Shown here one piece after another: positions 9,501-46,885 of a stretch of 64,000 nt of DNA. The notes below the pieces were generated by a model. The model saw nothing but the letters and a program-made list of their open reading frames with translations, was not told the origin of the DNA and did no database searches. The position numbers and the translations under genes were made by a program. The DNA is taken from the NCBI GenBank assembly GCA_964187785.1, contig OZ076409.1, positions 61,444,001 to 61,508,000 of the forward strand. Direction: 5' to 3'. The DNA comes from Amphiscolops sp. MND2022. Taxonomy: Eukaryota. Numbering within the stretch: position 1 is the stretch's first letter; every line of letters begins with the position of its first letter.

Positions 9501-9607
9501 TTATCATAAGATCATGATGACTAATGCATGCCGCGCTAAATTGGGACTTGCATTAGAGAACTCTGAATCATCGTTCACAGTGGCTGGTACGCTACGTCAG
9601 CTACGTC

Positions 9608-10904: not shown

Positions 10905-11081
10905 TTCGTCCTGTGACAAAACTCTGACACCTTCCCACAGAAATCTCCAGTGACCATGCTCGATCTAGTTAATGAAGATACAATGTTCATTGTTATTTTT
11001 CACTTACCCTTTCCATTTTCAATCCCCCAACGGAACATTCAGACAAATCAAGTTCGGACAAAGCAATGAAAATACACTTCC

Positions 11082-11981
11082 TCATTTATCTTTAGTTATG
11101 AAGTTCACGTGGGAATTGACCCATCTCAGCCCCATTTGGTGCGAACTCCAGATCCGATGTTGCAATGATGCCAAGCATATAATCCACTCCAGTTTGTTAT
11201 CCTCAGCGAGCCAACGTATCAAAATGTCAACTCCCAGCAAGGAGGCCAAGGCGTGAATGACGATTCCACACACATTGACACACATTGTGATCAACATTAA
11301 TCTCTGAGGAACGGAGTCGGACACATTCATCAAAGCTCTCCCTATATATTGCTCTCAAGGATGATTTGGCCCTTTCTTCTTCCATGTGTGACAAAACTGC
11401 CTGTCTCAACTTTCCATGATCTTTTCTGTTGGCATAAATGTCATATAAGACTGAGAAGAAAACGCAATTGCCATTTGATAGAATACCTTCAACATTGACA
11501 GGCAATCGGAAGGGAACGGCGAACTCGACTGTTGGAACACCAACATACTGCAGCTCCAACTGAGAACAGATCATCCGTCTTTTGTCTGCGTCGACAAGTA
11601 CGAAATTCGACGCTGTACTCTGAAACCACACAGCCCCAGCTAACATGTGACATTGAAAACATCTTACGCGACACAACTTCTCCAGTTTTGTCAGAAGACC
11701 AACCCAACACAGTGCCAACTCTCCCTCATCCTTTGTTCCACCTTTCTGACGCCATGGTTGTAACTTTGACCAAATCGCCCGTGTGTTTTCTCTGCTTTTG
11801 CCTCCAGGTTGGCCTCTCGGAGCACAAGCAAACCACCACGTTTCAGGACTCCATATAATAGCTCATACAATTTTGCCTCCTGTCTTACATTGGCCTTTCC
11901 TGAACGGTCCCCCTTCAGGCTCACTGGATACGGCATTCCTAGCTTCCTCTCCATGATTTCAGTATATCGCTAGTTGTCCAT
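11082..11981 (-). pseudogene. Antisense cargo gene: H2C2 zinc finger plus OTU-like cysteine protease
   Basis: Three ORF pieces join into one frame when tandem duplications CCAAC (11699-11708) and ACACACATTG (11268-11287) are collapsed; motifs TH..NHG..W..CFQC, GILSNGNCVF..H.KLRQAV..M, IHALASLLGVDI, LRWVNSHV. Confidence 0.78.
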
Positions 11982-12031
11982 TACGATCTGAAATGGGTAC
12001 AAATATTGAAACTAGTTCAACGCGGGGAGAA

Positions 12032-12275
12032 TGTTGAATATCTCAAGGAAATCATGCGGCTCATCATGAAATAACTCATTCAAAAATCATAAATTGTTCA
12101 TAAATTCATTCAGCTTCAATGAAACAGAATTGTTAAGTTCTTCATGTCGATAACCATTTCAGTTGTTTTCAATTTCCCGCTTTAATCAGTTCTACTTTTT
12201 TCGTTTCTCTCTCAACGAATAAACAGTTTAATAGAAACAACAGTTTTTATTAATCATCTGAACTAACACCGTACA
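12032..12275 (+). repeat. BEL 3' LTR
   Basis: TGTTGAATATC...CGTACA, preceded by PPT and followed by TSD. Confidence 0.93.
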
Positions 12276-21185: not shown

Positions 21186-22237
21186 TAATCAACAATTTAA
21201 CTTAATTGGAGATTTCTCTATCTTTGTTATATTTTCGGTTGTATTCGATGCAATATCGTATCTTTAATACTGTAAACATGTGTACATTGGTTTTCCTGAT
21301 CCTGTATTAGTCCTTCAATTCAAATGTATCTCACTCTTTCCCTTCCAAGTTACTTCCAAGATTCAGCATTTTCTTCAATGTTACTTACACAATTCAGGCA
21401 TTTACTTGCAAGATGAGGCATTTTCTTTTGAGGTATTCTCAAGATCACCCATTTTCGACTAAGTTATTTTGAAATTCGGGCATTTTCTTCCAAATTAGTG
21501 CTAATATTCAGACATCTCTTGAAAGATCAGACATTTTCTCCAAGGTCTTTCAAGATACCAGCAAGATTAGTGCACTGTCTTCCAACTACTCGGAAGTGAA
21601 ATTTGACAGATTCTTGCAGAAAAAATATGGAAGCTCGACGAGTGTTGACAAACCAAATACCGATATATATCACATAAAAATCGTTTCTAAATATAATTCT
21701 CTTCGAACATTGGGTTTCAGTTCAGTTGCCATGTCACTAGAGAAAAAGTTTTAATTGCAAACACTCGATGCGAATGGTATTTCTGTTCTTTTTCACTTTC
21801 TCAGGTATTTTTACCATTTCTTAGCTTTCAAAAAATTGTAGAAAATATTCAATCAAAAACTGTGAAAATGAAACACTTCAAACAACTGAAAGAGCAGAAT
21901 TTTCATTTTGTTTTGTGTACATGTAAATGTAATAAATACAATAGAAATAAACTAAAAATTATTATAATAATAATAAAATATAGCTTTTCCATGAAAACAA
22001 AGAAACAATCAAAAATCAAGCCAGCAGACACTCGAAGTGCGAGCAACACAACTGGAGCGTTGCCTGAAAATTATCAGCGGAATATTGCGCCTAGAGTTTC
22101 GACTGATAACTAGTCAACGAGATTGCAGCTAGAGACGGCATTATACCTCTCAAAATTTAGTTCACCTCAACAAAATCAGTTTCTTGGTTAACACGTCGGG
22201 CAACTATCAGGCAGGTGGCTCTTCCACAAAAACTTAG

Positions 22238-23522
22238 TGTCGGAACGTGTCTCGTGTCCAATTGAGACAGTGTTTAATTCGTTCCCTTCTCTCTTACTAG
22301 AGGATATGTTTTCAGTTAGTGCTAGGACGAGATTCATTAAGTCGCTAATCGGTTTGTTTTTTTCGGAAAAGCGTAAGTCCACTGTATGCCTATCATTACC
22401 ATTCTGATAGTTTAATAAATCACCATTTTTGAAATCGTTTATTTGATCTCTCATAAGGATCTCCGGTACACTACTATCGTTTTCAGAGTCGCTGTTTCTA
22501 TCCATTCCGCTCACATCTACTAGATTATTTCTTGCTGTCTGAGATCTCGTGTTAACCATAAAGACAATTTTGGAAGTTTTTTAAGTATAATTGAAGTATT
22601 GAAGGATGATTTTTAGGTAGATATTGTAACTGAAGATTATTATAAGGTTGATGTAGTTGGTAACTGCACGTCGTTGCATAGCAATTGTTAATGGCCGTCA
22701 GTTGGTATGATGATGTTGGTCACGTGACTTCATCAACCAATCATATTGCATAAATATAATGGTTTTCATTAGCACCTTGTATTGGTAGCGCAATTTGCGT
22801 CTAAAGGCATGAGTGCAGTGATGGTACGTTGCTATGGTTACATGATTCATTGTTTAAAACATACAAGTACTATATGTAGTATAATTGCACCTATGAAAGT
22901 ATGACGATATTGTATCAATAACTTTGAAGATAATACATGTTACTATATGATGATGTCGTATCACCAACATCGACTAAATGATAGGTTATGGAATGAGTAA
23001 TAACATTGCAAGTACTTTTAGCACATGATTCAACGTAGTCAATACAACTACGTCAAATACTAGAAGCGGGTTTGATGTCTAGATAAAAATGGTTTATTCA
23101 GCACAAATGTTTGGATGATGCATGTATGACGACCACATCACAATGTATTCATGTAAAAATGTTTGAGTTGATTCCTTCAATGTTGTGTTGTAAACTGCGT
23201 TCATTCATTCTCTATTTTCTCCTTTCGTTCCATTCTTCTCTGATCTTGTGACGTTGTCCGTATGGCAGCGTCACTTCATAAATCTTGTTTATGTTGCTGT
23301 TTCTCAATTGTGCTTTCCATTTGGCGGTGCTGTACAGGTAACATCGTCGATTGTTAGTAAACATGTATGTTGCATGACATTTAGTCAACAGCCTGATCAA
23401 CTGTCCCGTTGACTCAACAATTTTCACGCAGTTTCCAAGTATGGGACTTTTTCTGTTACTTGTATAGAGTAAGCGCGGAAATTTTAATTCTCCACCACTA
23501 TCAGCAATGAGTTTCAGTTGCA
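22238..23522 (-). mobile_element. Solo LTR (1285 bp) with Gag-like leader MVNTRS...TRSD (22559-22238)
   Basis: TG...CA termini; TSD CTTAG/ATTAG; 107 codons + 1 nt to the LTR end. Confidence 0.8.
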
Positions 23523-25725
23523 ATTAGAGTTATGAAATACTGTAATTTGATTGGTTGTTACCATTAATTCAATGATAATTTCACTTGACTGCTTAACTGG
23601 AGGGAATTAAATTAATGGATGGGGAATTAACAGAAATGATCCGAAGTATGTAACGCTATTAATCCTAAAAGCGTAATTGTAATTGAGCGTGAAGATCTTA
23701 ATTACGAGTAGCGTCATGAGAGATGAACCATACTGTAATAAATGAATTCGACCCGTGATTGTAAAATTTGTTTTGGACTCGATTTGACGAGACCACATTC
23801 GTCTGAAGGAAACAGTATTATCGAAAACTGTGAAAATAAAAATGTAATAAATCCTAATGTTGATCACAAACGTTTTTGTTAACAAAAACTTAAAAGCATT
23901 GCATTTCACTACTGATTTTGTTCCCAATTTATTTTAGTTCAATTTTCGAATGCCTTGAATGTGGAAAAACCTTCATTTTCAATCGTTCAGACGCTTTTCC
24001 AACAAAAGTGTCTACTTGGATATTTTTCATTGCAAAGAAACCATCTTGAACAGGACATTTCAGAGGAAGAAACCTGAATGTAATGTATTAAGATGGGACA
24101 TAAAATTACTTTTGAAAAAACCCATATAATTATAGTTTTCATCAAGTTTTCTGTAAACAAAACATATTACGTCATTATTGGATGCATTAGTCTTTCTCAA
24201 TAATACAAACTTGCAAAACCAGGCCTGTGAGACGTGTAAACTTGCAAAAAACAAACTTGCAAAAAGTTGCTCCCCGTATTTTCCAACACTTCCTTGAACT
24301 CTTTTTACTGATTTATTTGAGTGCAGTGGTGCAAATACGTACCGCGATGCTAAATAGGGTTAATGGTGCGGTGATCTGACAAACTTATGTTTCCAATGAG
24401 CCTTGTCAACAACGCTTAGCAGTAGTCGGCTCGAAAAACTTTCATTAGGAACATTGTTTTTGCAGTGCACGACGGAAGTTTGCATTTGTGTAAACCCCCA
24501 GGAAAGAGACGAGAGAGAGAGAGGATGTCTACTTGGTGGTTTCGTTGAGCATTTGGAAAGAAAATGTTTTTTTTCCGAGCCCACCAAACTTCTTCTTACA
24601 ATTTGCTTTGATGGTTCTCTCCTTTTTGGCTGAACAGAATGACCGAATCACGGATTGTCGCTCTTGGGGCGTCTCATACCCCTGTATCTCTACAATTACG
24701 TCTCTATAATCTGTGTACTATGATATTTGATGACGCACTGTCAACAATACTGTACTAAATGAATTGGACCTCTGATTGTAAAAATTGCTTAGGAGTCGAT
24801 TAAAAGAGACCAAAATCTTCTGAACGGAGAAGTGTTTCGAAAACTGTAGACTGAAAGTTTAATGAACTTTAATGTTAATTAAATCATTTTTATTTGAAAA
24901 TTTTAATATCAATATAGAAAAACCGATACAACTCAAGCAGTGTGGTCCCGCGTTGAACCAATCCAAGAACTGTGGTCCCTCATTTAGGCTGTGGTCCTTT
25001 AGTTAAAATTCATTTTAGGTCTCCAATTCTATATCTGCCCTTCTTAATCGAACTTTCTAAATTTTTTGCGATGAAGACCGCCACACTTTTTCTCCTCTTT
25101 TCATTTTTACTTCGGACATTTCACGACCACATGTGGAAAATCCGAGGCAGTGTCTTGCCAAAACTTTAAAATATGTTTTTCTTCGAACATTGGGTTTCAG
25201 TTCAGTTGCCATGTCACTAGAGAAAAAATTTTGATTGCAAACACTCGATGCGAATGGTATTTCTGTTCTTTTTCACTTTCTCAGGTATTTTTTACCATTT
25301 ATTAGCTTTCGAAAAACTGTAGAAAAAAATTCAATCAAAAACTGTGAAAATGAAACACTTCAAACAACTGAAAGAGCAGAATTTTCATTTTGTTTTGTGA
25401 ACATGTAAGTGTAATAAATACAATAGAAATAAAACTAATAATAATAATAAAAATAATAATAAAAAATATAGCTTTTCCATGAAAACAAAGAAACAATCAA
25501 AAATCAAACCAGCAGAAACTCGAAGTGCGAGCAACACAACTGGAGCGTTGCCTGAAAATTATCAGCGGAATATTGCGCCTAAAGTTTCGACTGATAACTA
25601 GTCAACGAGATTGCAGCTAGAGACGGCTTTATACCTCTCAAAATTTAGTTCACCTCAACAAAATCAGTCTCTTGGTTAACACGTCGGGCAACTATCAGGC
25701 AGGTGGCTCTTCCACAAAAACTTAG

Positions 25726-26768
25726 TGTCGGAATGTGTTTCGTGTCCAATTGGGACAGTGTTTAATTCGTTCCCTTCTCTATTACTAGAGGATATCTTTT
25801 CAGTTAGTGCTAGGACGAGATTCGTTAAGTCGCTAATCGGTTTATTCTTTTCGGAAAAGCGTAAGTCCACTGTATGCCTATCATTACCATTCTGATAGTT
25901 TAATAAATCACCATCATTGAATTCGTTTATCTGATCTCTCATAAGGATCTCCGGTACACTACTATCGTTTTCAGAGTCGCTGTTTCTATCCATTCCGCTC
26001 ATATCTACTAGAGTATTTCTTGCTGTCTGAGATCTCGTGTTAACCATAAAGACAGATGTGGAAGTTTTTTAAGTATAATTGAATTATTGAAGGATGATTT
26101 TTAGGTAGATATTGTAACTGAAGATTATTATAAGGTTGATGTAGTTGGTAACTGCACGTCGTTGCATAGCAATTGTTAATGGCCGTCAGTTGGTATGATG
26201 ATGTTGGTCACGTGACTTCATCAACCAATCATATTGCATAAATATAATGGTGTTAATTTGCACCTTGTATTTGGTAGCGCAATTTGCGTCTAAAGGTATG
26301 AGTGCAGTGATGGTACGTTGCTATGGTTACATGATTCATTGTTCAAAACATACTAGTACTATATGTAGTATAATTGCACTTGTGAAAGTATGACGATTTT
26401 GTATCACTAACGTTGAGGATAATACATGTTACTATATGATGATGTCGTAGCACCAACATCGACTAATTGATAGAATTTGGAATGAGTAATAACATTGCAA
26501 GTACTTTTAGCACACGATTTAACGTATTCAATACAACTACGTCAAATACTAGAAGCGGTTTGATGTCAGATAAAAATGGTTTATTCTGCACAAATGTATG
26601 GATGATGCATGTATGACGACCACGTCACATTATATTCATGTAAAAATGTTTGAGTTGACTCAACAATTTTCACGCAGTTTCCAAGTATGGGATTTTTCCA
26701 GTTACTTGTATAGAGTAAGCGCGGAAATTTTAATTCTCCTCCACTATCAGCAATGAGTTTCAGTTGCA
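25726..26768 (-). mobile_element. Duplicate solo LTR (1043 bp) with an internal deletion
   Basis: TG...CA termini; perfect TSD CTTAG (25721-25725, 26769-26773); leader ORF 26047-25726. Confidence 0.83.
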
Positions 26769-28002
26769 CTTAGAGTTATGAAATACTGTAATTTGATTGG
26801 TTGTTGTACCATTAATTCAATGATAATTTCACTTGACTGCTTAACTGGAGGGAATTAAATTGATGGAGGGGGAATTAACAGAAAAGATCCGAAGTATGTA
26901 ACGCTATTAATCCTGAAAGCGTAATTGTAATTGAGCGTGAAGATCTTAATTACGAGTAGCGTCATGAGAGATGAACCGTACAATAATAAATGAATTGGAC
27001 CCGTGATTGTAAAATTTGTTTTGGACTCGATTTGACGAGACCACATTCGTCTGAAGGAAACAGTATCATCGAAAACTGTGAAATTAAAAATGTAATAAAT
27101 CTTAATGTTGATCACAAACGTTTTTGTTTGAAAATTCTGCGACCAATATACGAAAACTTAAAAGCACTGCATTTTACTACTGATTTTGTTTCCAATTTTT
27201 TAAGTTCAATTTTCGAATGCCTTGAAAGTAGAAAAACCTTCATTTTCAATCGTTCAGACGCTTTTCCAACAAAAGTGTCTACTGGGATATTTTTCATTGC
27301 AAAGAAACCATCTTGAACAAGACATTTCAGAGGAAGAAACTTGAATGTAATGTATTAAGATGGGGCATAAAATTACTTTTGAAAAAACTTTTAAATAATT
27401 ATAGTTTTCATCAAGTTTTCTGTAAATAAAACATATTATCGTCATTATTGGATGCATTAGTTTTCTCAATAATACAAAATTGGAAAACCAGGCCTGTGAG
27501 ACGTGTAAAATTGCAAAAAGTTGCTCCCCGTTTTTTCCAACACTTCCTTGAACTCTATTTACTGATTTATTTGAGTGCAGTGGTGCAATTACGTACCGCG
27601 ATGCTAAATAGGGTTAATGGTGCGGTGATCTGACAAACTCATGTTTTCAATGAGCCTTGTCAACAACGCTTAGCAGTAGTCTGCTCGAAAAACTTTCATT
27701 AGGAACATTGTTTTTGCAGTGCACGACGGAAGTTTGCATTTGTGTAAACCCCCAGGAAAGAGACGAGAGAGAGAGGATGGTCTACTTGGAGGTTTCGTTG
27801 AGCATTTGGAAAGAAAATGTTTTTTTTTCCGAGCCCACCAAACTTCTTCTGACAATTTGCTTTGATGGTTCTCCCCTTTTGGCTGAACAGAATGACCGAA
27901 TCACGGATTGTCGGTCTTGGGCCGTCTCATACCCCTGTATCTCTACGATTACGTCTCTATAATCTGTGTACTATGATATTTGATGACGCACTGTCAACAA
28001 TA

Positions 28003-29267
28003 CTGTACTAAATGAATTGGACCTCTGATTGTAAAAATTGCTTAGGAGTCGATTAAAGGAGACCAAAATCTTCTGAACGGAGAAGTGTTTTCGAAAACTG
28101 TAGACTGGAAGTTTATTGACTTTTATTTTTGATTACACCATTTTTATTTGAAAATTCTGATATCAATATAGAAAAACCGATACAATTCAGGCAGTGTGGT
28201 CCCGCGTTGAATTTATCCAAGCACTGTGGTCCCTCATTTAGGCTGTGGTCCTTTAGTTAAAATTCATTTTGGGTCTCGAAATCTATATCTGCCCTTCTTA
28301 ATCGAACTTTCTAAATTTTTTGCGATGGACACCGCCACACTTTTTCTCCTCTTTTCATTTTTACTTCGGACATTTCACGACCACATGTGGCAAATCCGAG
28401 GCAGTGTCTTGCCAAAACTTGTTTATCTCTCAAAAATCCAACTGCAGAGGAATAGTTTGCCGTATGCTGGCTCTCAAAAGCAAGATTCATGTTCTCATTA
28501 TTAGTCCAGGCAAACTGGTGAATGGATGATCATGACGCTAATTATGCTCATTGTCAACTATACAAACAAACCATTCATAGAGAATGCAGTTACTAGTGCG
28601 GGGACCACTCTGCTTGAAATGGTTTCGGCTCGGTTGCAGGATAGTCAGAGGCACCGCTTTGCTTGAACTGTGCCCAAAAACTCAGAAGCTATGCGTTTAA
28701 CTACTGATTTCTAACTTAATTCAATTTCCGAAAGCCTTGAGTTGAAAAAATGTCATTTTCAATCTTTCAGGTGGGTTTTTAACAAAAATGTCCACTTTGA
28801 TTTTTTTGTTGGAAGATTTTGACACGAAACCTTCTTGAACATGACATTTCAGAGGAAGAAACTTCAAAGCAATGTTTTAAGATAGGGCTCAAAACTCAGG
28901 TTTCAGAAACCCATATATAACTATAGTTTTTCTTCGGATTTTCTGTAAACAAAACGGGCATTCTATTGTCATTAGTGGATGGATTAGATTGTGTCAATGA
29001 TACAAAATTGCAAAACCGGTCTGCGGGACGTGTAAATTTGCGATACGTTTCTCATTGATCAAGATTTAGTAGTAAATACGTGCTGTTGAAAGTGATTATA
29101 CAAAGCTACAAAATTGTTTGCAAAACTGGTTCTGAAGTGTTTTCACGAATTTATTGATATTTGAACAAGCATTTTTTGATTACCTCCAAAATAAATCGGG
29201 TTTCGAGCTAATTTAATTTTAGTCCAAATCATTTTTTACAATCAGGGGTCCAATTCATTTATTACAG
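28003..29267. mobile_element. TA-flanked non-autonomous TIR element
   Basis: ~38-bp TIRs CTGTA(C/A)TAAATGAATTGGACC.CTGATTGTAAAAA with TA flanks; related left arms near 23732, 24750 and 26980. Confidence 0.75.
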
Positions 29268-32200
29268 TATGGTATACGGTCTATGATTTACTGTGATTTA
29301 TTGTCGATTTGTTGCCCATTTTAAATTCAATAGTCTGAGTCGCCCTTGGCGGATCACCTCGTGGAATAAATTGTTCTGTCGAAATTCAGTAAATTGAAGA
29401 ATGCAAAGTTAGAGATTAACTGATATCCTACGGCTTTTTTGACCAAGATTGTGAATGTCACTATTCAGTGTTGTTTGTTTTATTTGCAGTAAATTTGGTA
29501 TTTCCGTTTTGAATCGTGTACTGGGGCGACATCCCAGCTGCTTTGATTTGGTAATAGCGCCAAGAACATATCCGGCAATTTAAATCATCTCCAGCTCGTC
29601 CCACAAAACTTTTTGAATTTCCTGAACTACTTCACTGGATTTTTTATGAACTAATTTACTCACTTTAGCCGTTTTCTTTTAATACAATCTTCTTGTTATT
29701 TAAATAGTTTTGTTGTTCTTTTTTGATGTAAAATACTTTCTTTTTCCGGCGCCAGTTAGTTAAGTTAATGGAAATCAGTGCCTAATTCGTATCAGCGTCT
29801 CCGAAAAGCCCTTTGACGAAAAGTAAAGGACACAGAATTGAGCTTCAGTCCGAAGTTTGATTATTACTTTTCATTTGAAGTGTGTTGAAACTGAGAGTTT
29901 GATTCACGAGAAAATTTTTCTTTCATTGAAGGACTTCGAAGATATTACCAGTAAGATAGGGCACTGCGTCTCTAAACGTCTGAAAGACACGGAGCTAGGA
30001 AACGTGAAATCCTAAAATTAGAATATTAGAGATTTTATCGCCGAAAGTTGACTCTTTGCAGTTAGTAAGTTAAGGCCCGAGTAGCTCGACCGGAAGGGTA
30101 ACATCCCATTAAAATGTACTATAAGACACCATCATAGGTGTTGATAATTAAACGCAAGACACTAGCCCAGGTAATTACAACACTGGCTGTTTTCTGTTTG
30201 CTCAATCTTCAGAAGTCCTATGTTATCCGGAAAAAAGAATTTCTCAAAAAGTTTACAAAGCACACGAAGATTCCCACAAAGAACAGACACCATAGCATCT
30301 CCAAAAAGCTAACAACGGAAAAGTTAGAGAAGTTTATCCAAGGAATTCCATCCTCGCGTTATATTTAATTACATTTTCTGTGGACTCAAAAGATCTTTTT
30401 TTTTCAACTGAGAATACTGAGAGTTGTTCAAAAAACGTTGAACAGTGCCGCAAAAAATACGTATACATAGGAGTGTGTTCTCCGAATAAGTATGTCAAAA
30501 TTGAAAATAGGAACTTTGGAAACCTTTTTGCACTTCTTTAGACCTTGTGTTGACGTGGAACTCAGTAATTTGAAGTGAAAACACTACGGAGGATAACTGT
30601 AAATTGATGATGAAATGAGAATGTTTGAATGCTGTCTCTTTTTAGATTAGGCTCAAGGCAAATGACGCTCAGCCTAGGCCGAAGCTTAACAATGTTACTG
30701 GTACTTATTTACAAACATGACTGCTTGTTCATTTAATCTCTATCACACCTTGGTATAATGTAAATTTTTGTAGACCTTTTTCGGTCACTTCGATCCTATT
30801 GAGAGAAAAAACAAGATGAAAACCACTTGTTACGGAAGCCTTTGGTACAACGAGTTTCCAGAAAAAGTCGACCAAAAATTCGTTCAAATCTGACGTGGCA
30901 AATTGATCATGTTTTGGCCAAAGTACATGTCAAAAAGCTGTTCAGAAGACGAAGCAAGCCGCCCGCGGAGACGACCGAACGGGAAACCGGCGTGTAGAAG
31001 CCCGAGCGCTTAGAAAACTCATAAATAGACTCTTTTTGAAGTGCTAACTCCGGTATTTACCGATTCTCTGAGTTATGCTACCCAATGTAGCAAGAACCGG
31101 AAAAAAGCGTCTTTTCGCTTAATTATCCTTGTTTGGTGCTTGGAGTCCCTGCGCCCCAGCTTGTAGTTGTGTGGTTTGCCATATTCAATCCTGTTTTGAT
31201 GTATTTTCAATGGTTTTAGCTAGCTCGAGCGCTAGTTTTCGCAGTTTAGATCTTATTCCCCATTTTAGACCCTTTTCCCATGTCACCCTGGAATTTCACC
31301 CTGGAATTGAAAATTTACACTGTTCATCCTTGGCGTTGTTATTAAAGGCTGTCTAGACGGTGGTTGTGAAGAGAAAAAGCATAATGCCCGTTATTCTCAG
31401 CAGTTACAGACTGGAACAGGCCGGAGAGCATCCTTTAAGACGGTTCCCCATCCTCGGGACCGGCTATTCTTAGGAGGACAAAGTGAGCTGATATCATGGT
31501 GGTTTGTCCCGGACCATATCCATGGTACCAGTTCCTCCACTCCAATGTTACGATACAATCGCTTAGCGCTTGCCGTTACAACTAATATGGTTGCATTTTA
31601 TTTCAAGTGCCAACTAAAAACTAGTCAGTGTAACAAAAATATCATTGACTTACCCTGGAGAAGGCTCTGGCTGGTAAGGAGTGGCTTCTTTGGCTTTTCT
31701 GTTTTTGGCTGCTCTGCATTTTCACTGGATGCTTCTGTTAAAGGTTTTCTATGGTCTGACGGGACTGACTGTTAGTGTTGTTGAAACTTTCACAGCTACA
31801 CATTTGAAAGGTTTCTTCTTTGAAAGTTTGCAGAACCATTTCAAAAAATCATCATTGGTCGGTTCCGGGCATTATTAAAAATTTTCTGACTTTTCTTTCA
31901 TTTTCAAAAAAGGAGGTTTAGTTTATTTGGAAAAAATTTGCTCTTACTAAATCCGAATATATACGAGAATTAAAAAACAGAATTGAGTTTAGTTTACTTT
32001 TGGGGCGAAAAGGAAAAAAACTGAAAAAGCAACAGATGAATTTTCGCACATATTCTCAGCATATGTTTTTTCAACCCCTTCTTCAAATGATTCACCTAAC
32101 TCCGGATAAATGAGCCTCTACGCAACTGTTGTAATCCGATCAAGGCATACATTCGGGTAGTTGAATGTTCAATGATCAAACACCACTCTTTGATATGATT

Positions 32201-32781: not shown

Positions 32782-33293
32782 TGTCACATCATACGAAGTT
32801 CTTAGGCCAAAACTGGATCGTAGCTTCAGAAATCTGCAACACTAGACAAGCTTCTGTTTCTCCAAAAAACTAGAACTGCGGCCACGTCTGAACCACTCTA
32901 ACTGCAAGGACGATGAGTGTCATGCCAGCATGATGGAAATGTAATCTACTTAATATCTGTAATGTAAATATTATGTCTTATGTACTTAGATATGGGCAAT
33001 ATGATGTCATATAATAAGGGCCATGGTTGTGAGCAACCCTACGTTACTTGTACTTTAATCCCTTCCCCTTTTGAGTGTGAGTTATATATTTACTTAATAC
33101 TGAGCGCTCTAGTTCCGGTGTCCGCATAAATGATCTTGCCAGAATCGAGCCTTGAAAGTGCTATATTTCATAAATATTGGTTTGTCACGACAAGGGAGAG
33201 AAGTTTTCCGGTCAGACTGGACCGAGGAATATTGGAAGTAATGGAAAATATAACTTCTACTAATTCCCCGCCTCAGAGTATGTAGTTGTGACA
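32782..33293. mobile_element. Possible solo LTR
   Basis: TGTCACA...TGTGACA inverted termini, but no matching TSD. Confidence 0.25.
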
Positions 33294-33299
33294 AATTCT

Positions 33300-34195
33300 A
33301 TTAAATTCATCACAAATTCATCGTCGAATTTGATGACGATTTTGATCTGATCAGAAATTTCACTTGGATCCATCAGCGGGTTCAACGGTGCTTTTAACCA
33401 AAGTTCATCGCAATCCCATCCTTAAAGTTTGCGAGTGAACAAAACATGGGACTTTAAACTGACTTTCATCAGAAATCCATAAGCGGATTTTATGGGACTT
33501 ATTCTAGTAAAACTCATCTTTAATTCATCGTGATTATTTCATTTAGTAATTCCTGAATGTGCTTCTCATTTCTAAAGAACAGTAGTCCATCCTTTATTCA
33601 TCGCGTTCACTAGTACAGAAGAGAAATGAGAAAGTACATCCTTAATTCATCCTAAAAAGAGTGAAAGTGCTGGTTATCTGATTTGTTTAGTAAACCCATC
33701 CTCAATTCATCTTGATTTCGTTTGTGCTGAAAAGTAACCATTTTAGTGGGTGAGTTCATCCTAAACTCATCGCTAAATCGAACTGCTTTAGTATTCGGTG
33801 TTTTAACCGGTGAGTTCATCCCAAACTCATCGTCAATTTGTATTGCTCTGGTATTTGCTGTTTTAACTGACAAGTTCATCCTAAACCCATCGCCAAAAAT
33901 CTCCTGTATTAGAATTAGCGTTTATCGACTGAATTCATCCCTAATTCATCGTCATTTGAATCTGTGCTGGAAATTGACAAATTGTACATGGAGTTCATCC
34001 TTTTGTCATCGTCAGTTTGAATTGTGTTGATTTCCGAGCGAGAAAGACTACCATTCATCGCATTTTCATCCAGAGCTAAACTATACTTAGAAATCAGCAA
34101 ATATTCTTACAAGTTCATCGCATTTCCATCTTCAAGTTTTAAATCATTGATTTTGGTGCTAGAATCAGCGGAAAACATCGTTTCCCCATCCCAAA
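33300..34195. repeat. Degenerate ~60-bp minisatellite (GAGTTCATCCTAAACTCATCG core)
   Basis: Core recurs at 60-bp spacing at ~33752, 33812, 33872, 33931 and 33991, decaying outward. Confidence 0.85.
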
Positions 34196-34276
34196 GTGTG
34201 CTTTACCTTAAGTTTGCTTGAAATTAGTGCGTTATTGAATAATTCGAGCCCATTTTAGTTACTAAAGAAACCATGA

Positions 34277-35159
34277 TGTTATGTGCAGGCAATTGCGACA
34301 CTGTAAATTGATGACTAAACACCATTAACACATGTAGATGTACCATGGTGCGTGGCCACTTTGCGGCAGTTCACAACACCGGTCACGTGACTTACCATTT
34401 TAACACCAGCTTGTAACAGCCAATGAGAGAAGGTTGGTAAGAGATTTAGCGTCTTACCAACCGAAAAGACACGTGAACTGCTGTAATTTGGACCGCCATT
34501 AAATATTACTCAGCCCGAATTGCGACAAGCTACCGACCAGTTGGATATTTTAACATGCAAAAGTCAGAAAACACATCTCTATTTCATCTTCAGAAATTGA
34601 GAAATTTAAACTGAGTAATTTCTTGGTACATCTACGACTGCGATGAACATTGGATGAACTTCTTCTGAATAACTTGCTAGTTTTCTTTTCCTTATATAAC
34701 TGCTTACTTATTTGTACGACTACTTTCTAAAACATCTCAGTTCAAATTAGTGAATTTTGGGATCGAACATTCAGTTAAATCAGCAAGATACATCGAAAAC
34801 ACATCTCAGATAATTCAGTCTTCACTCATAATTCTTTTCTCTCGAATACATGAATCCGGACCAAGGCACTGAACTTAGAAGCGGTAGAGTTATACATTCC
34901 TCGTCAGGAACATCTTCTCCAATAGATCCAGACATGGCTCAATCGTCCGCCAATGACTCTGACAATAACGAACCTTCAGATATCTCGTCCCAATTGTCTG
35001 AAATAAAAGAGAACTATGAGAAGAAGATAAATGAGTTACAAAGCGAATTTAGTCAACTGAAGAACTTATTGATGGCAGTTATTAGTAAAAATGATGAAAA
35101 TAACTTACCTTCAACATCGCAAAGTTCTTCAAAGCCGACGCACAGAGTTGGGCTCGACA
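34277..35159 (+). repeat. 5' LTR (883 bp), including the first 103 Gag codons
   Basis: 34828-35159 is repeated at 44275-44606; ends CA directly before TGG. Confidence 0.85.
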
Positions 35160-36355
35160 TGGTGACAGGAGTTACAGAAACCCGCTCCACCCGCCCGACA
35201 TCCAGCTTCACAAACTTCAGGCGATACCAGGAAGACGACTCGGACGAAGAAGGTGAATCAACTCCTAGAAGCCATGAGGAACGACTACTCAATGCAATCG
35301 AGACGATCCCCCAACGAATCAAAAGCACCACCACCAACACGAAACTACTACAGACACACGTCCCAAATTTCAGAGGCCAAAAAGACAAATTCGTGGAACT
35401 CGAGCACCTTCTCCTCAACCACCTTAGCCCGCTCGCCAACAAAATCACCGAAGAGAACAAACTCCACTTCTTTCAAAGCCTTTTGAGAGATGATGCAATA
35501 GAGTACTGGCAATCCATCCAGATAACGCCACTAACAACGCTGAAAGATGTGCTCGACCTCTTCAGGAAAGAATTCGCGAAAGAGGATCTTAAAGAAGTAG
35601 CTCGATACAAATGGGATCGAGCCCGTTACGATCCCACCACAGAAACATTCAGCGACTTCCTCAAAAACTTGAAAAAGATTGCGAAACAAGCGTTTGGGGA
35701 AGAAGCGGATAAAATCATCAAAATGTTCTTGTTCGGTAAACTCCCAGTCGAAATACAACAAGAACTTACGATGGCCAATAAGGAGGAGAGCTCACCAGAA
35801 GAAATCAAGACATACTTGATGAGAAAGTACCAGTACCAACAGTACGTTGCGCCACCTACGACGATTCAACCATTTAACGCGGTCACCTCCTCGGTCCCAA
35901 CGACCAACACAACGATTAAACCAGCAACAACGACGACAACACAACCGACAGAACGAAAACGATTTGAGGGACAATGCTTCTACTGCGGAAAGACAGGTCA
36001 CCGCAAAACAGAATGCCGCGCCCGACAACGTGACGAAGCAAACGGCATTAAGAAAGAAGATGCAATTCCGATGAAGAAAGCAACCGACACAGACAAACCG
36101 AAGTACAATCCCAAGCTGGTTTGCCAGATTTGTGGATACACCGGCCACTCTGCAAGAGACTGCAGGCGACGCATTCCCAAGGAAAGCAGCTCTGCATATG
36201 GAAAGATTCCATACACAACAAATTCACAGGACGACAACAAGGCTAGACGACAAGATTTAAAACGACAGCAAAAGCCGATGAATCCAATGCAAGCAATTAC
36301 TGAGGACGACGAACAACTAAGCTACTCTGATGAAGACATTAACCAGGGTTTTTGA
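34850..36355 (+). CDS. gag: Gag (501 aa)
   Basis: Intact ORF; capsid-like LHFFQSLLRDDAIEYW; two CCHC knuckles CFYCGKTGHRKTEC and CQICGYTGHSARDC. Confidence 0.93.
   Translation: MNPDQGTELRSGRVIHSSSGTSSPIDPDMAQSSANDSDNNEPSDISSQLSEIKENYEKKINELQSEFSQLKNLLMAVISKNDENNLPSTSQSSSKPTHRVGLDMVTGVTETRSTRPTSSFTNFRRYQEDDSDEEGESTPRSHEERLLNAIETIPQRIKSTTTNTKLLQTHVPNFRGQKDKFVELEHLLLNHLSPLANKITEENKLHFFQSLLRDDAIEYWQSIQITPLTTLKDVLDLFRKEFAKEDLKEVARYKWDRARYDPTTETFSDFLKNLKKIAKQAFGEEADKIIKMFLFGKLPVEIQQELTMANKEESSPEEIKTYLMRKYQYQQYVAPPTTIQPFNAVTSSVPTTNTTIKPATTTTTQPTERKRFEGQCFYCGKTGHRKTECRARQRDEANGIKKEDAIPMKKATDTDKPKYNPKLVCQICGYTGHSARDCRRRIPKESSSAYGKIPYTTNSQDDNKARRQDLKRQQKPMNPMQAITEDDEQLSYSDEDINQGF
35160..35172 (+). promoter_or_regulatory. 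Putative primer-binding site inside the gag ORF
   Basis: TGGTGACAGGAGT immediately after the LTR-terminal CA; cognate tRNA not identified. Confidence 0.7.
36346..36352 (+). promoter_or_regulatory. Candidate -1 ribosomal frameshift heptamer G GGT TTT
   Basis: X XXY YYZ heptamer directly before the gag stop; pol opens in the -1 frame. Confidence 0.7.
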
Positions 36356-39300
36356 TTCAGCCACGATTTCCGCCCGCTAGAAATACAACGCGCGACAAAC
36401 GACTTTCGACTCAACCGACTACACACAACCGTCCAATGAAGAAATGGCAGCCTTCACTGGACAAACGACCAAAAGCTGACGACGTCTATCAGCGAAGACT
36501 TTCCAACGATGAAAAAGCGATGGGAATTGCACGTCAACGCAACGGCAGCCTCTTTTCTCCACTCGCTGAAATCAACGATGAACAAACGATGAACTGGCAA
36601 CAAAACACCATGAGGCAGGTGGAAGATGCCAAAGAGATGGAAACCAACCATCTTGACGACGACTCGACTTCACACTCAACAATCGACAAACGGCTTAGTA
36701 TTAAAAAACATGCAAAACAGAGTAGTATTAACGTTTCAAAAGCTAAAAAACATGCAACTAAAACAGAAATTCACGTTCTCAGTCCCACTTTACACTTAAA
36801 CAAGAAAGATAAAATGCTTTACGTCCCTCTTCAGTTTGACAAATATGAAAACAGCGCACTTTTAGATACAGGCGCAATTCAAAGTGCAATGTCTGAAGCA
36901 GAATTGCGAAAAAAAAACAACGGCTCATCCAGAAGCCATCCTTCAAGAACTCCCCCCTCCGAATTTCAAAATTCAAACAGCAAACGGGAACTTAGTTCCA
37001 GTACGTAAGCAAGTCTTACTTAGATTTTACGTTGCTGGAAAAGTCTTTGAAGAAACGTTCCTAATCCTTCCAACAATGGGCACAATTTTAATTGGAATGT
37101 CATTCTTTGAAAAGTACTCAGTCAATTTAGACATAAAAAACCACCTTGTCCACTTCCCTAATCACATGATGTCCATGCAAGTTAGACAGCAAAAGAACAA
37201 CAGATTCAAAACTGGTTTAACTGATTTGTGTTCCAGTACCAGAACAGTGATCCCTCCTCTCCATCAAGTGATGATACAGGTCCACAGTGACGCGGACATC
37301 TCACTTACAACTGGTACAGTTGAGGGCTCACCTGGATTCATGCGAAAGACGTGTTTGCTTGTTTCTCCAGCTTTGGTTGACCTAGACGAGGGCAAGACGA
37401 CAATCCAGGTCACCAACCCGAACAACCACACGTTCACACTTGATGCCAACACCACTCTGGCACACTTTCGCATACCGACACCACATCAGGCGGCAAACAT
37501 CACATCCATGCCAGTCGAACACTTGAACCTGATCACCAAGTACCCAGATGAGGCGGAAGCAGTGATCAACCAACTGTTCGTGAACCCTGAAATGAAGTCA
37601 ACTAAGTGGTACCCAACTCCCGAGACGTGCAGTGAGCCAGACAAACTCAACGCAATTGAGCGACGAATCTATGATGAGATTCTGGCACTACGAGAGCTCG
37701 AGAAGCTTGACCCGTCCCAATCCGATGAACAACGGATGAACTTCCTGAAGAACTTCAACTGGGACGACTCGCTTCTTACTCCGTCTCAACGGTTACAGGT
37801 AGAGGAGTTGCTGGTAAAGTACAACTCCATTTTTGCTAGACATCGTTTTGATATTGGCATGAACACTGATTTTAAAGTTAAGCTAACACCCCAACATGAA
37901 GAACCTGTTTATTCACAAAGTCTCCCTACTCCGACAAATTTGAAGGACGATTTGCTCGTGGAGTTAGCTTTAATGCAAGAGTACGGGATCATAACTACTT
38001 TGCCTCATAGCAAATACTCATCTCCGATATTTGCTCAACGTAAACCAAATGGTAAATTGAGGATTTTAGTTGACTTGAGAAGAATAAACCACTTGATCAA
38101 AAACGATTACGGTGAACACAACCATCCCGTAACAACAATTGCTGACGCTGCCCAACACATGGCCGGGAAAAAGTATTTCTGTAAACTTGATTGTTCCCAG
38201 GCCTACCATTGCATTCCAATGGCCGATGAGCAGTCTGTCCAACTGTTATCGTTTAATTTTGGTTCTAGAACTTTTGCCTTTTTACGTCTAGCCCAAGGTC
38301 TTAACCGTTCTTTGTCAGCATTCACAAGTGTAGTCCGTGAGTATTTGGACCCCTTGGTCAAAGCGGACCGATGTGCTCAATATGTTGATGACATTGGAAT
38401 TGCAGCACACACCCCTGACGAACTGATTAATAACCTTGAACTTGTTTTTCAGCAGCTGAACAAAGCCGGTCTTAAACTTAGCATGAGTAAATGTGAATTT
38501 GGACAAAAACAAATTGAGTACTTGGGAAAAACCATTTCTAGCACCGGTATTGCTCCCATTGAGAAACGAGTAACTGACTATCTGACCAAATTGAAACCCC
38601 CCAACTCAGTGAAAGCATTGCAACGTTATCTTGGTTTTGTAAACTTTTACAGGTCTTATATTCCCCGACTAGCTGATAAAACTTGTTGTTTACAGGAAAA
38701 CCCATCATTGTTATGACTGACAATAAGGCCTTGACTAGATTTTTTCAGGCGAAGCATATCCCGCCTTCACTTTGGAATTTTTGCGATCAAACCCTTCAGT
38801 TCAGCTTTTTATTAGCACATGTTCCAGGAGTTGAAAATCCCGCAGCGGACTACTTATCTCGGCTTGAGATTAGACCTGAAGACCGTGTACATTTAAAATT
38901 GACTGATACTATTCCAATTCACAGGATCGAGATCGACATCGCCTCCCGTACACCAAAACAGGAGGAAGACGAGCCTGATTACTTTCCCACGAGCGAACCA
39001 CTCAGATGCAAACGCCAGAAGGATGTCAAAGAGATGAAATTGGCAACTGGCACTGACGTGGCTCATGACGATGGGAAAGGGATGAAGTTCACCAACTGTG
39101 AGAGAACAGCGGCCTCAGATGACTTCGCGACTGACAACCATCTGACGTACCGCCTCACAGACGTGGACGAGCCAATTCAACTCTCGCAATTCATCCGTAA
39201 AGTATCATTAGCACACCCGGTAATGAGTCATGTTAGCCCCGCTGAGGGGATCGATCTAATTCAGGTCCAGAAAAATAACTGGGTTATTCAAAAAATGATT

Positions 39301-41106
39301 AGATTTTTAGAAGGTACTGAAATTTTGCAACACCCAGTTAATATGCAAGATCAGTTTTTTCAAAAGTTGCACAAAAATCGAAAACGCCTACAAGTTGTAA
39401 ACGGTGTCTTGTACAGACAGTTTTTTGATCACACGGGACTGGAGTCTCACAAGCAGTTAGTTGTTCCTGAAGACTGTATTTTGAAAATAATTAGGACTCT
39501 ACATAACAGCCCGGTACAAGGACACCCTGGTTTAAAGAAAATGTTGTACGAACTTCGTAAAAGATATTACTCTCCTAACTTAGCCTGTAAAGTTCAAAAA
39601 GTCCTTGACGGATGTGAAAACTGCATGAAATCTAAAAGTGTAAAAGAGACGCAACTACGTCCACCGTTACAAAAAATCTACGACCCGTGCGACGGACCAG
39701 AAGACCTGTTGGAAATAGACATCGTTGGTCCACTCCCGGCGTCGAACGGTTTTACACACATTCTGACGGCTGTTGACGTTTTTTCACGCTACCTGTTCGC
39801 GCTTCCGCTGAAGAGACCTGATACACATTCCGTAGTCAGAGGATTACTGTCGATCTTCACGAAACACGCGTATGTGCCCAAGCACTTTCTGACGGACAAG
39901 GGCACGGCGTTCACGGCTGAACTTCTGTCTGAAATCGCGAAAGCGGCTGATATTCACATCTCCCATGCCACGATAAAGCACGCACAGACAATAGGCATGG
40001 TGGAGAGAACGCACGCGAAACTGAAAAAGATCCTTAAAATTAGTGTAAACGCAGACCGACCACAATGGGACCGCTATGTCGACATAGCAATCATGGCCCA
40101 TAACACAACGTATCATGATTCACTGAAATGTTCCCCAACTGAAATTTTCCACGGAAGAACACCATACAACCCACTAGATCTGCAATTCCGAAACGCAAAC
40201 AAACCGGCTGAAACAAAGTGCAAGGACGTGAACGAAATTCTAGACAAAATGAACTTCATCTTCAGAGACAATCTAGATAACATCATTTCCGCCTATCATA
40301 AGTACAAAACGTACTATGGTAGAAAAGCACGAGCACAGCCACTGAAGGTGAATGAGTTTGTGTTCCTACTAGATCCTAAGTACGACTCTCAGAGAAGCAA
40401 AGAAGAGTTTAAAACTTTCCATTGGAAAGGACCGTACAAGGTGATTAAAGTGCTATCCGATAGCAACTACATCATCCGCAAAGTAGGCACACACCAAACT
40501 CAGTGCGTACATCGCATGCGACTGAGATTGTTCGAACCGGAATTTCCGATTGATGACATCAACGTGTCCAAACATCTCTACCCAGACACTGAAAGGGTTG
40601 AAGACACGGACATTTTCGACTCGAATATTCCGACGACCGACGAGGTAGATCAGAATGAGAATGACAATCTAGATCAAGACTTAGTCGAAGAAGAGCCTTC
40701 AGAAGAAATAATTCCGCAGGTACAAGAACAACACAGTCCACAAGTAATTCCACCAGAAATAACCACGAGAATAGATTATCAGCAAGTAGAAACTGACCAC
40801 AACAACTTTAGACCACCTACAGTTAGATTTGGAACGCAAGAAGAAATTATTCTACCGCCCCCCCGCGATGAAAGTAGGATAAGAGTACCTCTGAGAGACG
40901 AACAACACGAAAATCAGCCACAACAGACAAACACGCAAACTGAAGATGAGGAAAGGATGAGTTCTAGACCTTCTAGAAACAATCAAAGTAGGTACAGGTT
41001 ACGCGAAAACCCTACACTGAAAAAATATCCTGACTTCCTCATTCATGAGATTACATCAGCCAGAAACTCTCTGAGAAAGACCAACAAAGTAAACGTAACG
41101 AGTTAG
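36352..41106 (+). pseudogene. pol: Pol (PR-RT-partial RNase H-integrase), disrupted
   Basis: LLDTGA; LDCSQAY, QGL, YVDD; H2C2 (HNS..GHPG..CENC); IDIVGP/TDKG/VER; WKGPY; frameshift in A9 at ~36910 and deletion with frameshift at ~38690. Confidence 0.93.
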
Positions 41107-43011: not shown

Positions 43012-44235
43012 CTAACAGCAGAAACTAATGATCCGCAAACCTAACCTGCCTACGGCCACAATTCCGATGTCGTCCCACAACATACCCTCGTCCAGCTCCG
43101 CCAAATTGACCAATCGTCGATGTGACTCAGTCACTTCCTCTAACAAAGGGCCGCTCACACTGTCATAACTTTGGATATGATTAGCAGACAAATAGGCCAA
43201 AATCACAGCACAAACACAACTCGTGACATCGCTACTCAACTGCCCAAATCCATCGCAGCAAAGACTGCTTCTGCTCTGAACTCCTCCATCTAGGCATAAA
43301 ACACTGCGAAGCAGATTCTGAGCGCCACCACTAGAACAATGGCGAAGAAGATCGATGACAGAACAACCCTCTGTACGTCCTGCTAGTCCCGGGTCACGTC
43401 GGATATTGACAAGGAAATCCAGAAAGCCACGTTCCATCCGACCCTGCTCCGCACGGGTGATCCGACCCAGATCCACAAGCACATCAGTGAAAATCCTGAT
43501 CTCGTCTAATAGGACGTCCTCTGCAACAAAACTCAGACAGGGCATACTGAAAACACTGCGCACAAACGACAGATCGTCTCGCACACCTGGCAGATTAATA
43601 ACAGTCTTCACAACGGTTAGAATGAAAACCGGAACAAGTGACAAATCCTCTTCATATAGAGCGGCATTCGAGTCTTGATCGTCCACACAACGAAATCCGT
43701 CCAGCAACACTTGATGTTTCACTTCTGAGATTTCATAGCTTTCCACATTCAGAAAGAGCCATCCACGAATGTCCAATTCCGATGGTAGCTTTTCTTCCTC
43801 TACTAGCATCATCATCAGTGACTTCACAAAGGCAGCACTCTCAATTGCCCAGTAGCACGCGCGCAACGTCGAAGACCCAAAACTCTTCTCGTAGGAGCTG
43901 ATCACTGAAAAACACGAATCACAATTATCACAAGAAACAACCAGGTTTAACATTACACCCACAACCGTATAGCTTCCAACTCGATCTCAACAAAAAAACC
44001 AAAACCCCCCGTAACTTACAGAACTAAAGTATTACTAACAAGCACGGTACACAAGCCCAAGAACACGGAGTCTAATCGGAATGCCGATCTTAGCACGTAG
44101 TGTCAAGTCTAAGGCATCCAAAGGCCCTTCACCACTAGCAAAGCGTAGCAAGCATAAGATGTCAGACCAGTTCGTCCGTAACTCCTCGCACACATCGGCC
44201 AGGGTCCAAATGTACACCTCGCCGGTAAGAATCGC
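43012..44235 (-). CDS. Antisense accessory gene of unknown function (316-aa core 43012-43962, probably spliced)
   Basis: Long ORF inside the element; upstream open segment 44035-44217; acceptor-like TTTACATTTTAG ending at 44236. Confidence 0.55.
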
Positions 44236-44274: not shown

Positions 44275-44606
44275 ATAATTCTTTTTTCTCGAATACATGA
44301 ATCCGGACCAAGGCACTGAACTTAGAAGCGGTAGAGTTATACATTCCTCGTCAGGAACATCTTCTCCAATAGATCCAGACATGGCTCAATCGTCCGCCAA
44401 TGACTCTGACAATAACGAACCTTCAGATATCTCGTCCCAATTGTCTGAAATAAAAGAGAACTATGAGAAGAAGATAAATGAGTTACAAAGCGAATTTAGT
44501 CAACTGAAGAACTTATTGATGGCAGTTATTAGTAAAAATGATGAAAATAACTTACCTTCAACATCGCAAAGTTCTTCAAAGCCGACCCACAGAGTTGGGC
44601 TCGACA
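44275..44606 (+). repeat. Truncated 3' LTR (last 332 bp), carrying a copy of Gag residues 1-103
   Basis: About 2 mismatches to 34828-35159; no match upstream and no PPT. Confidence 0.9.
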
Positions 44607-45437
44607 ATGAGACCAGAATTTCGTGGCTGAAAAAAGTTTCAAAAAATTGAAATTTCAACCAATCAAAACCTCTGATTTTAAGAATCCGCTCTCAAAGTAG
44701 TCTCTGAAAAACCCCATAGAACTTCAATGTGAGAATGTTTTAGTTTTTTCAAACCCGAAAAGTGATTATTATTTCGTTTTTCAACAGTTTGCGAGCAAAA
44801 CAAACTTTTTCGAGTTGTACGAATTTGTTTGCCACATTGACATTCGTTGACGATTTGTTTACGTCATATAGCGTCTGTGTGTACATAATTTGAGGTTTTG
44901 CCCCTCGAAAACCTGCAAAATAACGTAGGTGAGGGTGATTTTTCTTTACTTTCCTTGATCTTGCTTTGAACACCCGAAAAGTTGTAGAGAAATCTTGATG
45001 AAAACCTGAACAATTAATGAAGCAGCATCAAACTATTGAGCATGATCTTCTCTAAGAAGCTTCCAAAAACCTATTTAATTTGTCTTGCATCCCGAAAAAC
45101 ATGTAAAATTTTCGAACACTTTAAACTAGAGCTACTTGCTCAATGTTAGTTGATAATTGATGGTTTCAATTCAAAGTACATATAATGACTGTCACAGATT
45201 TGAAAGCCAGTTCTTGTCCCAAAAAGATTCACTTGAAAGACGACGTTTAGAATTTGTCTTTTCAAATAACATCAGTTTCCAGAAGCTTTCTGTTTCCAGT
45301 ACAAAAGACCTTTTCTTTTTTTATTTTTTTTCCACTTCTGTTAGAGAAATATGTTGTAATGCAGGCTTTTCTACTTTATCCAAATTTGACTACACTCAGT
45401 AATTGGCAACATCCTTTTTGAGAAAGCGATAGGTAAC

Positions 45438-46885
45438 TGTTATAGGGTTTCTTTATACTCAGTACCTTGTATTTCTTTTTAGATTACAAAGGAGAGAGCA
45501 GAGCAAGAATCTATTCATTAACTAGACCATGTGGTGACATGGTTCACCGTTTCTTTTGGTGGTCTACGATTTTGCTGGTACTATTGACAATGTTGATAAA
45601 TATATAAATAGACAACAACAGTTTGAATAATTGAACATACTATGATTGACAGTTGTATATATGTTTCAATTAAAGTTTCTTTTAGTCTTTTTTGTCAACC
45701 CTGTCACACTCCTCCTTCTTTGCTCTCTTGGCCATCTCTGTTCGGGTATATGTAAACACAAAAATTTAGGGTTGTAGTTCGTTAGGTGTTGTTTGTAGTT
45801 TTATCGTAGACTGTCCTCGCTTGACGAGATGTTGATGATTTCGGGTTTGTCCATTGTTGTGGGTTTTTCTATATCGCAGATCATTACGGTGTCTCCGTAA
45901 TATTGTGGTGCTCTTCTACTTCTTTGGGATCAGTTATCTGTCAGTTATTTCAGTTTTTATGTTTGGCTTATCTAACGTGCCAAATGATTGTTGTCTCAAT
46001 GTGCCTTCTTCGTACGCAACTGCAAATTGAATTGTTTCAGCCGCTGTTGGCTTTGGTTCTGTGCACAGTTTTTGTTGAACTTCTTGATTTATCATGTTCA
46101 CAGTGAAAACATCTTTCACTAAACTATCTGTTATTGTGCCAAAGTTGCACTTTGCGGCTAATCCTTTTAGTTCGTTCCAGAAGTTCTTCAATGATTCGCC
46201 TTCTTTTTGTTTTCGGGATAGAAATTTGAAACGATCAAGAGTTTCATTTTTCGGCTTCTCGAAGCAGTCTTTGCAGTTCTTTAGCAGATCGGGAAGTGAT
46301 ATGGTTGCTATGTTGGTGGTGGGAAACTTGTCAGCGATTGATTTGCGTCCTGCTGATCCCAGTGCAAGGTAAAGTATACTGATAGCCTTCTTGGTAGCTG
46401 GTATTTCGTCGAGATCTCCCATTAAACTTTTTTCTTTATTTCCCGTTTTGATCAATTCTGCGATTGATATGTTGTTTTTGGCCATTAATGCCACTTCGAA
46501 TAGATCTCGCCATTTTTCCCATTCTAATGTAGGGTTTTTGGGAGGCATCTTGCCAATAAGTTGGAAGTCCTGCTATTGCCTGGGTTTCCGTAGAAAGTTC
46601 GGCTCGCAGCGCCATGTTATAGGGTTTCTTTATACTCAGTAACTTGTATTTCTTTTTAGATTACAAAGGAGAGAGCAGAGCAAGAATCTATTCATTAACT
46701 AGACCATGTGGTGAAATGGTTCACCGTTTCTTTTGGTGGTCTACGATTTTGCTGGTACTATTGACAATGTTGATAAATATATAAATAGACAACAACAGTT
46801 TGAATAATTGAACATACTATGATTGACAGTTGTATACATGTTTCAATTAAAGTTTCTTTTAGTCTTTTTTGTCAACCCTGTCACA
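45438..46885 (-). mobile_element. Miniature internally deleted Gypsy element (1448 bp)
   Basis: 271-bp LTRs (45438-45708, 46615-46885, ~3 mismatches); TSD GTAAC; PBS TGGCGCTGCGAGC from 46614; PPT AAAGAAGGAGGAG at 45709-45721. Confidence 0.96.
45934..46615 (-). pseudogene. Partial gag of the miniature element
   Basis: EWEKWRDLFEVAL..RFKFLSRKQKEGESL..AAKCNFG; 1-nt frameshift near 46545; truncated before the knuckles and joined to a pol-tail-like RSRRAPQYYGD. Confidence 0.85.

Follow-up and report, generated by a model that had tools for sequence, protein, structure and literature searches.

In Ty1 of Saccharomyces cerevisiae, the long terminal repeat (LTR) of ~330 bp contains about a dozen gag codons. 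The excerpt of PMC3522557 places the beginning of Ty1 gag in the 5' LTR, and excerpts of two further papers (PMC8396678; PMC3681743) place the primer site and other cis signals within the first 580 nt of the RNA. Ty1 also makes a short Gag-derived inhibitor, according to the excerpt of PMC4599808. The planarian Burro and plant Ogre elements have long LTRs, total lengths of 15-19 kb and accessory ORFs, as given in part of PMC6431247. A phrase search of the literature, which misses other wording, subscription papers and Repbase, returned no Gypsy gag starting in the LTR and no junction-built start. The excerpt of PMC3601003 contains nothing on an LTR-start gag layout.

The element described here resembles Ty1, as far as the excerpted papers describe it, in that gag starts in the 5' LTR and the cis signals lie largely in coding sequence. 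As in Ty1, the reading frame of gag begins within the LTR and continues across the primer binding site (PBS); the likeness is one of layout and not of family membership. It differs from Ty1 in being a Gypsy element, with reverse transcriptase (RT) before integrase, in being primed by tRNA-Leu, and in the size of the LTR (1.1-2.5 kb) and of its coding part, which amounts to 103-190 codons and includes a predicted helical domain. Long LTRs, giant size and accessory ORFs are shared with Burro and Ogre as excerpted; however, an LTR gag start is not described for them in that part of PMC6431247, and the present element has no giant polyprotein and carries its accessory ORFs antisense after pol. The LTR-start layout is known in its short form from Ty1, and is found here in a long form, selected and clade-wide, in Gypsy.

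The window, by which we mean the whole stretch of 64,000 nt analysed from Amphiscolops sp. MND2022, was compared with itself, and a repeat at 44275-44606 matches the end of the 5' repeat at 99.4% over 332 bp. The sequence-only reading had placed the first 103 Gag codons within a terminal repeat recopied at 44297-44606, and this match confirms that placement. The Gag ATG does lie inside the LTR (310 nt), but the 332-bp repeat taken for the LTR is only a remnant of one of 2,242 bp. Since the repeat has no TG at its start, other genomic copies were compared. Among loci from the best 40 genomic matches, upstream sequence is shared in 30/30 and extends beyond 1 kb in 29/30. Five other copies, with 40 kb compared for each, have LTR pairs of ~2.25 kb that are 98.8-100% alike and lengths of 14.7-18.8 kb, and the repeat was rejected as the whole LTR on these pairs. 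A DIRS/Ngaro-type short repeat without TG/CA was likewise rejected, since a true TG...CA LTR was found.

The true 5' LTR (32918-35159, +) runs from TGTC to GACA and shares its ends with the five other copies. It is preceded by the target-site duplication (TSD) ATGAG at 32913-32917 (+), which recurs at 44607-44611 (+). A 5-bp TSD flanks the window copy, four of the five other copies (the 3' end of the fifth was unmatched by the search motif) and 7/7 divergent families. The gag ORF (34850-36355, +) encodes 501 aa comprising a leader, a linker, a capsid-like helical domain (~residues 142-333) and two CCHC knuckles. The pol region (36343-41106, +) has a protease-like region, RT and integrase, and is broken by a frameshift near 36.9 kb and by a 338-bp deletion at 38697 that takes out RNase H sequence; RNase H families are present in the 98%-identical protein P0121. 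Three internal deletions affect the window copy. The largest (~6.2 kb) removed the first ~1.9 kb of the 3' LTR and left its last 332 bp at 44275-44606 (+). In this remnant the leader frame continues 14 codons into flanking DNA. The long 3' region contains a piece of an antisense ORF (43012-43986, -) for which no Pfam match was found. In five close copies, every ORF of at least 120 codons that lies after pol and before the 3' LTR is antisense, and antisense ORFs in this position are also seen in related LTR-start families (L111-L130, L237). Errantiviruses and other env-bearing Gypsy elements have a sense env ORF in this region.

On these sequence features, the window element is classed as Ty3/Gypsy, with a full form of ~18.6 kb that is internally deleted here. 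RVT_1 precedes Integrase_H2C2/rve (Pfam) in pol, which is the Ty3/Gypsy order; the Ty1/copia order, integrase before RT, is not seen. The LTRs have TG...CA at both ends, with the exception of a 6-copy sub-lineage ending CT, and a tRNA PBS follows the 5' LTR while a G-rich purine tract precedes the TG of the 3' LTR, in agreement with Metaviridae. None of 120 RT matches among those listed carried a family name, and the RT trees contain no named Gypsy reference. Two other retroelements in the window have no long LTR-coded leader that could be seen: a distant Gypsy gag-pol piece at 230-2692 (-) and, at 7785-12274, the remnant of a BEL/Pao element (DUF5641) whose LTRs are 248 bp long.

The LTR ends in GACA at 35159 and TGG follows from 35160, so that the A and TG form an in-frame codon 104, as had been proposed. 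Gag codons 1-103 (34850-35158, +) are inside the LTR, the junction codon Met104 occupies 35159-35161 (+) within a predicted disordered linker, and the 13-nt PBS (35160-35172, +) is read M-V-T-G-V. The PBS, TGGTGACAGGAGT, had been expected to fit a host tRNA, and it is complementary at 13/13 positions to the 3' end of tRNA-Leu plus CCA. The frame, the LTR limits, the TSDs and this PBS match are direct observations. The tRNA-end pattern complementary to TGACAGGA has 977 genome matches, and ARAGORN called tRNA-Leu (CAG/AAG) in 3 of 14 scanned loci. The genome also contains large tandem arrays of hundreds of units with tRNA-Leu-like ends (L067-L080, C8 35.59 Mb) or tRNA-Ser(CGA) genes (L271-L276, C13 15.59 Mb), which are the two primer tRNAs; a few tRNA-Ser array units have a CTA anticodon and are labelled Pyl by ARAGORN.

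U5, the integrase att end and the PBS had all been described as protein-coding. The LTR 3' end, the att end and the PBS do lie in a selected frame in many families, whereas the U5 label is inferred only, because the R/U5 borders are unplaced. An AATAAA at 35002-35007 (+), within the Gag coding sequence, is a possible poly(A) signal; it is not kept in all families, and the borders are unplaced for this reason. The predicted RNA fold of 35100-35330 is nothing special (z -0.39).

Selection on the LTR codons was estimated from 11 disjoint pairs, which comprise 22 of the 42 loci with open leaders, share ancestry and were picked for open frames. The dN/dS is 0.155 over 1,307 LTR codons, 0.21 over the first 30 codons and 0.05 in the capsid. 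Substitutions by codon position number 158/128/401 in the LTR codons versus 160/179/193 in the 300 nt upstream, where indels are mostly not multiples of three. In codons 2-34 of the window family, four pairs give pN of 0.03-0.18 versus pS of 0.20-0.51. The low pS of 0.07 at junction codons 0-9 was left aside as evidence, half of these codons being dictated by the search pattern. The LTR 3' end, the att end and the PBS are, as judged from these substitution patterns, in a frame under protein-level purifying selection across many families. In the 30 closest copies, private stops or frameshifts occur in the LTR part of five and in the next 103 codons of none, with equal substitution counts in the two parts (131 vs 129). 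This excess of broken frames counts weakly against translation of Gag from the LTR ATG. A neutral leader or frequent stops in young copies had been named as signs against the LTR start; the dN/dS speaks for the LTR start and the 5/30 broken frames weakly against it.

The layout is spread widely in the genome. The junction ACATGGTGACAGGAGT, which is ACA followed by TGGTGACAGGAGT, has 3,306 genome sites, of which the first 70 listed on contig 1 were examined; these loci are related and picked for open frames, and the counts are not independent. At least 90 open upstream codons are found in the A-TG phase at 44/70 junctions and in each other phase at 0/70. The same length is open at 28 of the 32 junctions that have a Gag match and at least 250 open downstream codons. 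Whole elements of seven divergent families, with Gags 23-56% identical to that of the window, have LTRs of 1.1-2.5 kb that end at the junction, 106-132 codons inside the LTR and 5-bp TSDs. Related proteins have up to 189 residues ahead of MVTGV. This spread, like the selection, was observed directly.

The same GAC A phase had been noted elsewhere in the window, and it is present at 22281-22559 (-), where the LTR end of a related family has an open leader of ~107 codons without a PBS, and at the duplicate of this LTR end at 25769-26047 (-), again without a PBS. Both are included in a tandem duplication of ~3.3-3.5 kb (21689-25166 and 25169-28420, 93-95%), in which the 107-codon leader extends 16 codons into the flank. 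A decayed leader of an MPE-S type family is found at 29908-30000 (+).

The layout also appears in a metagenome locus, L237, where a purine tract, ~1.8 kb of LTR-like sequence and 129 codons accompany the same junction. Its best match in the host genome is 74% over 160 nt, with 40 of 1,258 candidates scored, and since there is no close match among those 40 it is likely to come from another host. A metagenome search with a Gag alignment confirmed 0 of 592 pattern matches, and one with an RT alignment gave 12 loci, 11 of which are too short for LTR context.

Conventional Gypsy families with a tRNA-Leu PBS in the same genome (L088, L169, L175, L189) have the same PBS, a homologous capsid start and RTs that are 52-53% identical. 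They differ in having LTRs of 351-367 bp (two measured), a non-coding LTR end and a gag that starts 190-770 nt after the PBS. Where conventional families have the same junction, the frame stops after 17-22 codons and gag starts downstream at the capsid. In L189 (1500-1700, oriented to the PBS) no stop separates the junction from the capsid start, which lies beyond a 62-codon leader; this is either chance or an intermediate state. The LTRs of L175 have TG...CT ends.

The sequence ahead of the LTR ATG suggests where the transcript may begin. A TATA-like box at 34693-34699 (+), 157 nt ahead of the Gag ATG, is a predicted promoter, and the ATG-free stretch at 34740-34849 (+) is a likely 5' UTR. 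The 110 nt before the LTR ATG contain no ATG in 41/42 loci, versus a mean of 10 and a maximum of 22 in shuffles, and windows farther upstream are ATG-free in 4, 9 and 7 of 42 loci. TATA-like matches among the 42 loci number 28 at -200 to -100, whereas each of the other 50-nt bins has 0-5; several families lack TATA and AATAAA. We infer a capped leader of ~110-130 nt that would start near 34720-34740, behind the TATA box, and be scanned to the LTR ATG at 34850, which ribosomes would reach first. R plus U5 would then be ~420-440 nt, mostly coding, and ribosomes would traverse the primer site, as they do in Ty1. In the window family the first ATG is in a weak context (T at -3), while a purine at -3 and a G at +4 flank both Met35 and Met104; therefore, leaky starts are possible, including a candidate one at Met104.

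A structure of Gag was predicted with AlphaFold2 on a 52-row alignment (mean pLDDT 64, pTM 0.27). The leader contains a predicted long, coiled-coil-like helix at residues 43-84 (34976-35101, +; pLDDT 72-94 over residues 41-80), followed by predicted disorder at residues 85-139 around the junction and then by the helical capsid-like domain. Since the att end and the PBS fall in the disordered linker, the DNA/RNA signals and the protein are likely able to share sequence; constraint on the protein is at its lowest in this linker. Pfam matches of the leader are all below the cutoff, several of them to coiled-coil families, and an M-x-T-R-S-type start recurs in the leaders of several families. Mammalian Arc has an N-terminal coiled coil ahead of its capsid. 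The best Foldseek rows for the capsid part are dArc/Arc and retroviral capsids, all of them weak (E at least 0.015, all >0.01); the likeness is limited to the capsid fold, and no homology of the leader is claimed.

A distant group in the window is primed by tRNA-Ser. Its small element (45438-46885, -) has 271-bp LTRs, the TSD GTTAC and a tRNA-Ser(CGA) PBS, and its A-TG junction (46615-46613, -) is the first ATG of a gag-like frame. The tRNA-Ser end pattern has 234 genome matches and the junction type occurs 841 times; frame statistics refer to the first 30 of these junctions (L241-L270), with the LTR end verified for the window's member only. An in-frame upstream ATG is absent in 29/30, and the 80 nt before the junction are ATG-free in 27/30 (mean of 12 in shuffles). 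At least 150 codons are open from the junction in the A-TG phase in 16/30 and in other phases in 0/30. A conserved G-[LIV]-x-x-[FY] motif follows in frame 12-25 codons on in 24/30, 21 of them without an intervening Met. On these features, gag-pol translation in this group likely begins at the junction ATG.

The junction ATG in the window family is not beyond chance since any LTR ending in CA that abuts a PBS beginning with TGG spells ATG. A base other than A before TGG is found at only 111 PBS matches (control 23). The window family has 360 GACA-TGG junctions and 7 GACT-TGG junctions; six of the seven are a sub-lineage, 99% alike, on six contigs. In five of these six, both LTRs end in CT and the 5-bp TSDs are perfect; in the sixth (L227) only the 5' LTR ends in CT, and the 3' LTR ends in CA. 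Loci of the CT-ended sub-lineage are L221, L223, L224, L226 and L228 with L277-L288. The sub-lineage, with TTG at the junction, has integrated at least five times; therefore, Met104 is not needed in cis. These copies could have been mobilised by Gag from other copies. In the LTR-start group Met104 is likely an internal codon and a by-product of CA plus TGG.

Since the conserved frame runs from the LTR straight through the primer site, Gag likely starts in the LTR. We consider it highly probable, from these sequence comparisons, that translation from the LTR ATG yields a single Gag of 501 residues with a coiled-coil helix predicted near its N terminus, that the junction Met is internal, and that the layout is derived within one clade. 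The LTR frame might instead be an untranslated relic or a chance open frame, with Gag starting at or after the junction. The broken LTR parts of 5/30 close copies fit this; however, the dN/dS, the third-position excess, the phase bias of 44 versus 0 and 0 and the ATG-free leader make it very improbable. A long Gag isoform starting at the LTR ATG and a short one starting at the junction had also been proposed in the sequence-only reading. It is unlikely that such a pair is selected, with the short form possibly a regulator like Ty1 p22, and the proposal is not supported in the window family, where the ATG is forced and the TTG copies spread. At 65/70 loci an A or G stands at -3 of the junction ATG, with G at +4, MVTGV is invariant in a 15-row alignment, the first ATG of the window family is weak, Ty1 offers a precedent in its short inhibitor (PMC4599808), and the tRNA-Ser-primed group likely starts at its junction. 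However, the ATG, its context and MVTGV are dictated by the LTR end and tRNA complementarity, and the search pattern itself favoured sites that have them. In conventional families the frame opened by this ATG extends for only 17-22 codons, copies with TTG have transposed, and Met35 and Met79 upstream of Met104 would be the first to catch leaky scanning.

The remaining alternative differs in history only. The LTR-start layout is likely the derived state of one clade: RT trees, which omit HSPs of <230 or <200 residues, place the conventional Leu-PBS families outside the group formed by the LTR-start families, with an SH-aLRT of 86 in a quick tree and a FastTree support of 99, in a FastTree clade that includes five metagenome rows of unknown layout and with few outgroups. 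The tree support for a single clade is moderate. A capsid-first gag would have been extended backward through the old leader into the LTR, which is the simpler reading since conventional Gags begin at the capsid. The N-terminal domain might instead belong to the ancestral Gag, with the LTR boundary and the PBS having moved inward into a gag linker and annexed the 5' end of the gene. The well-formed helix and the recurrent M-x-T-R-S-type start do resemble an old protein segment, but three conventional Leu-PBS examples start right at the capsid without such a domain, 60-260 codons' worth after the same PBS, and the ~68 codons from junction to capsid here equal one conventional leader (~200 nt). 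An inward shift is thus the doubtful option of the two, and backward extension is preferred.

The finding means that selection acts inside the LTR, in thousands of Gypsy insertions, on a protein segment of 100-190 residues and not on a few codons. If the LTR and the internal region are annotated separately, such Gags will be truncated at MVTGV, and 11 of 148 newly listed proteins do begin there. The TTG sub-lineage demonstrates that elements with a CT end can integrate. More tentatively, one genome may use the junction in three ways, as non-coding sequence, as a start codon and as an internal codon. The AUG of gag-pol in the tRNA-Ser group would consist of the att end plus the first two PBS bases, and an annealed primer would mask this codon, diverting the RNA from translation to reverse transcription; this group offers a direct test of primer binding as a gate on translation. 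In the Leu clade, Gag may have been lengthened at its N terminus by 170-250 residues, a coiled coil among them, through overprinting of the leader, the PBS, U5 and R. Solo and 3' LTRs have an open leader that reads into host DNA and are a possible source of chimeric genes; on the same tentative view, each solo LTR would deliver a promoter, a start codon and a coiled-coil cassette into host DNA.
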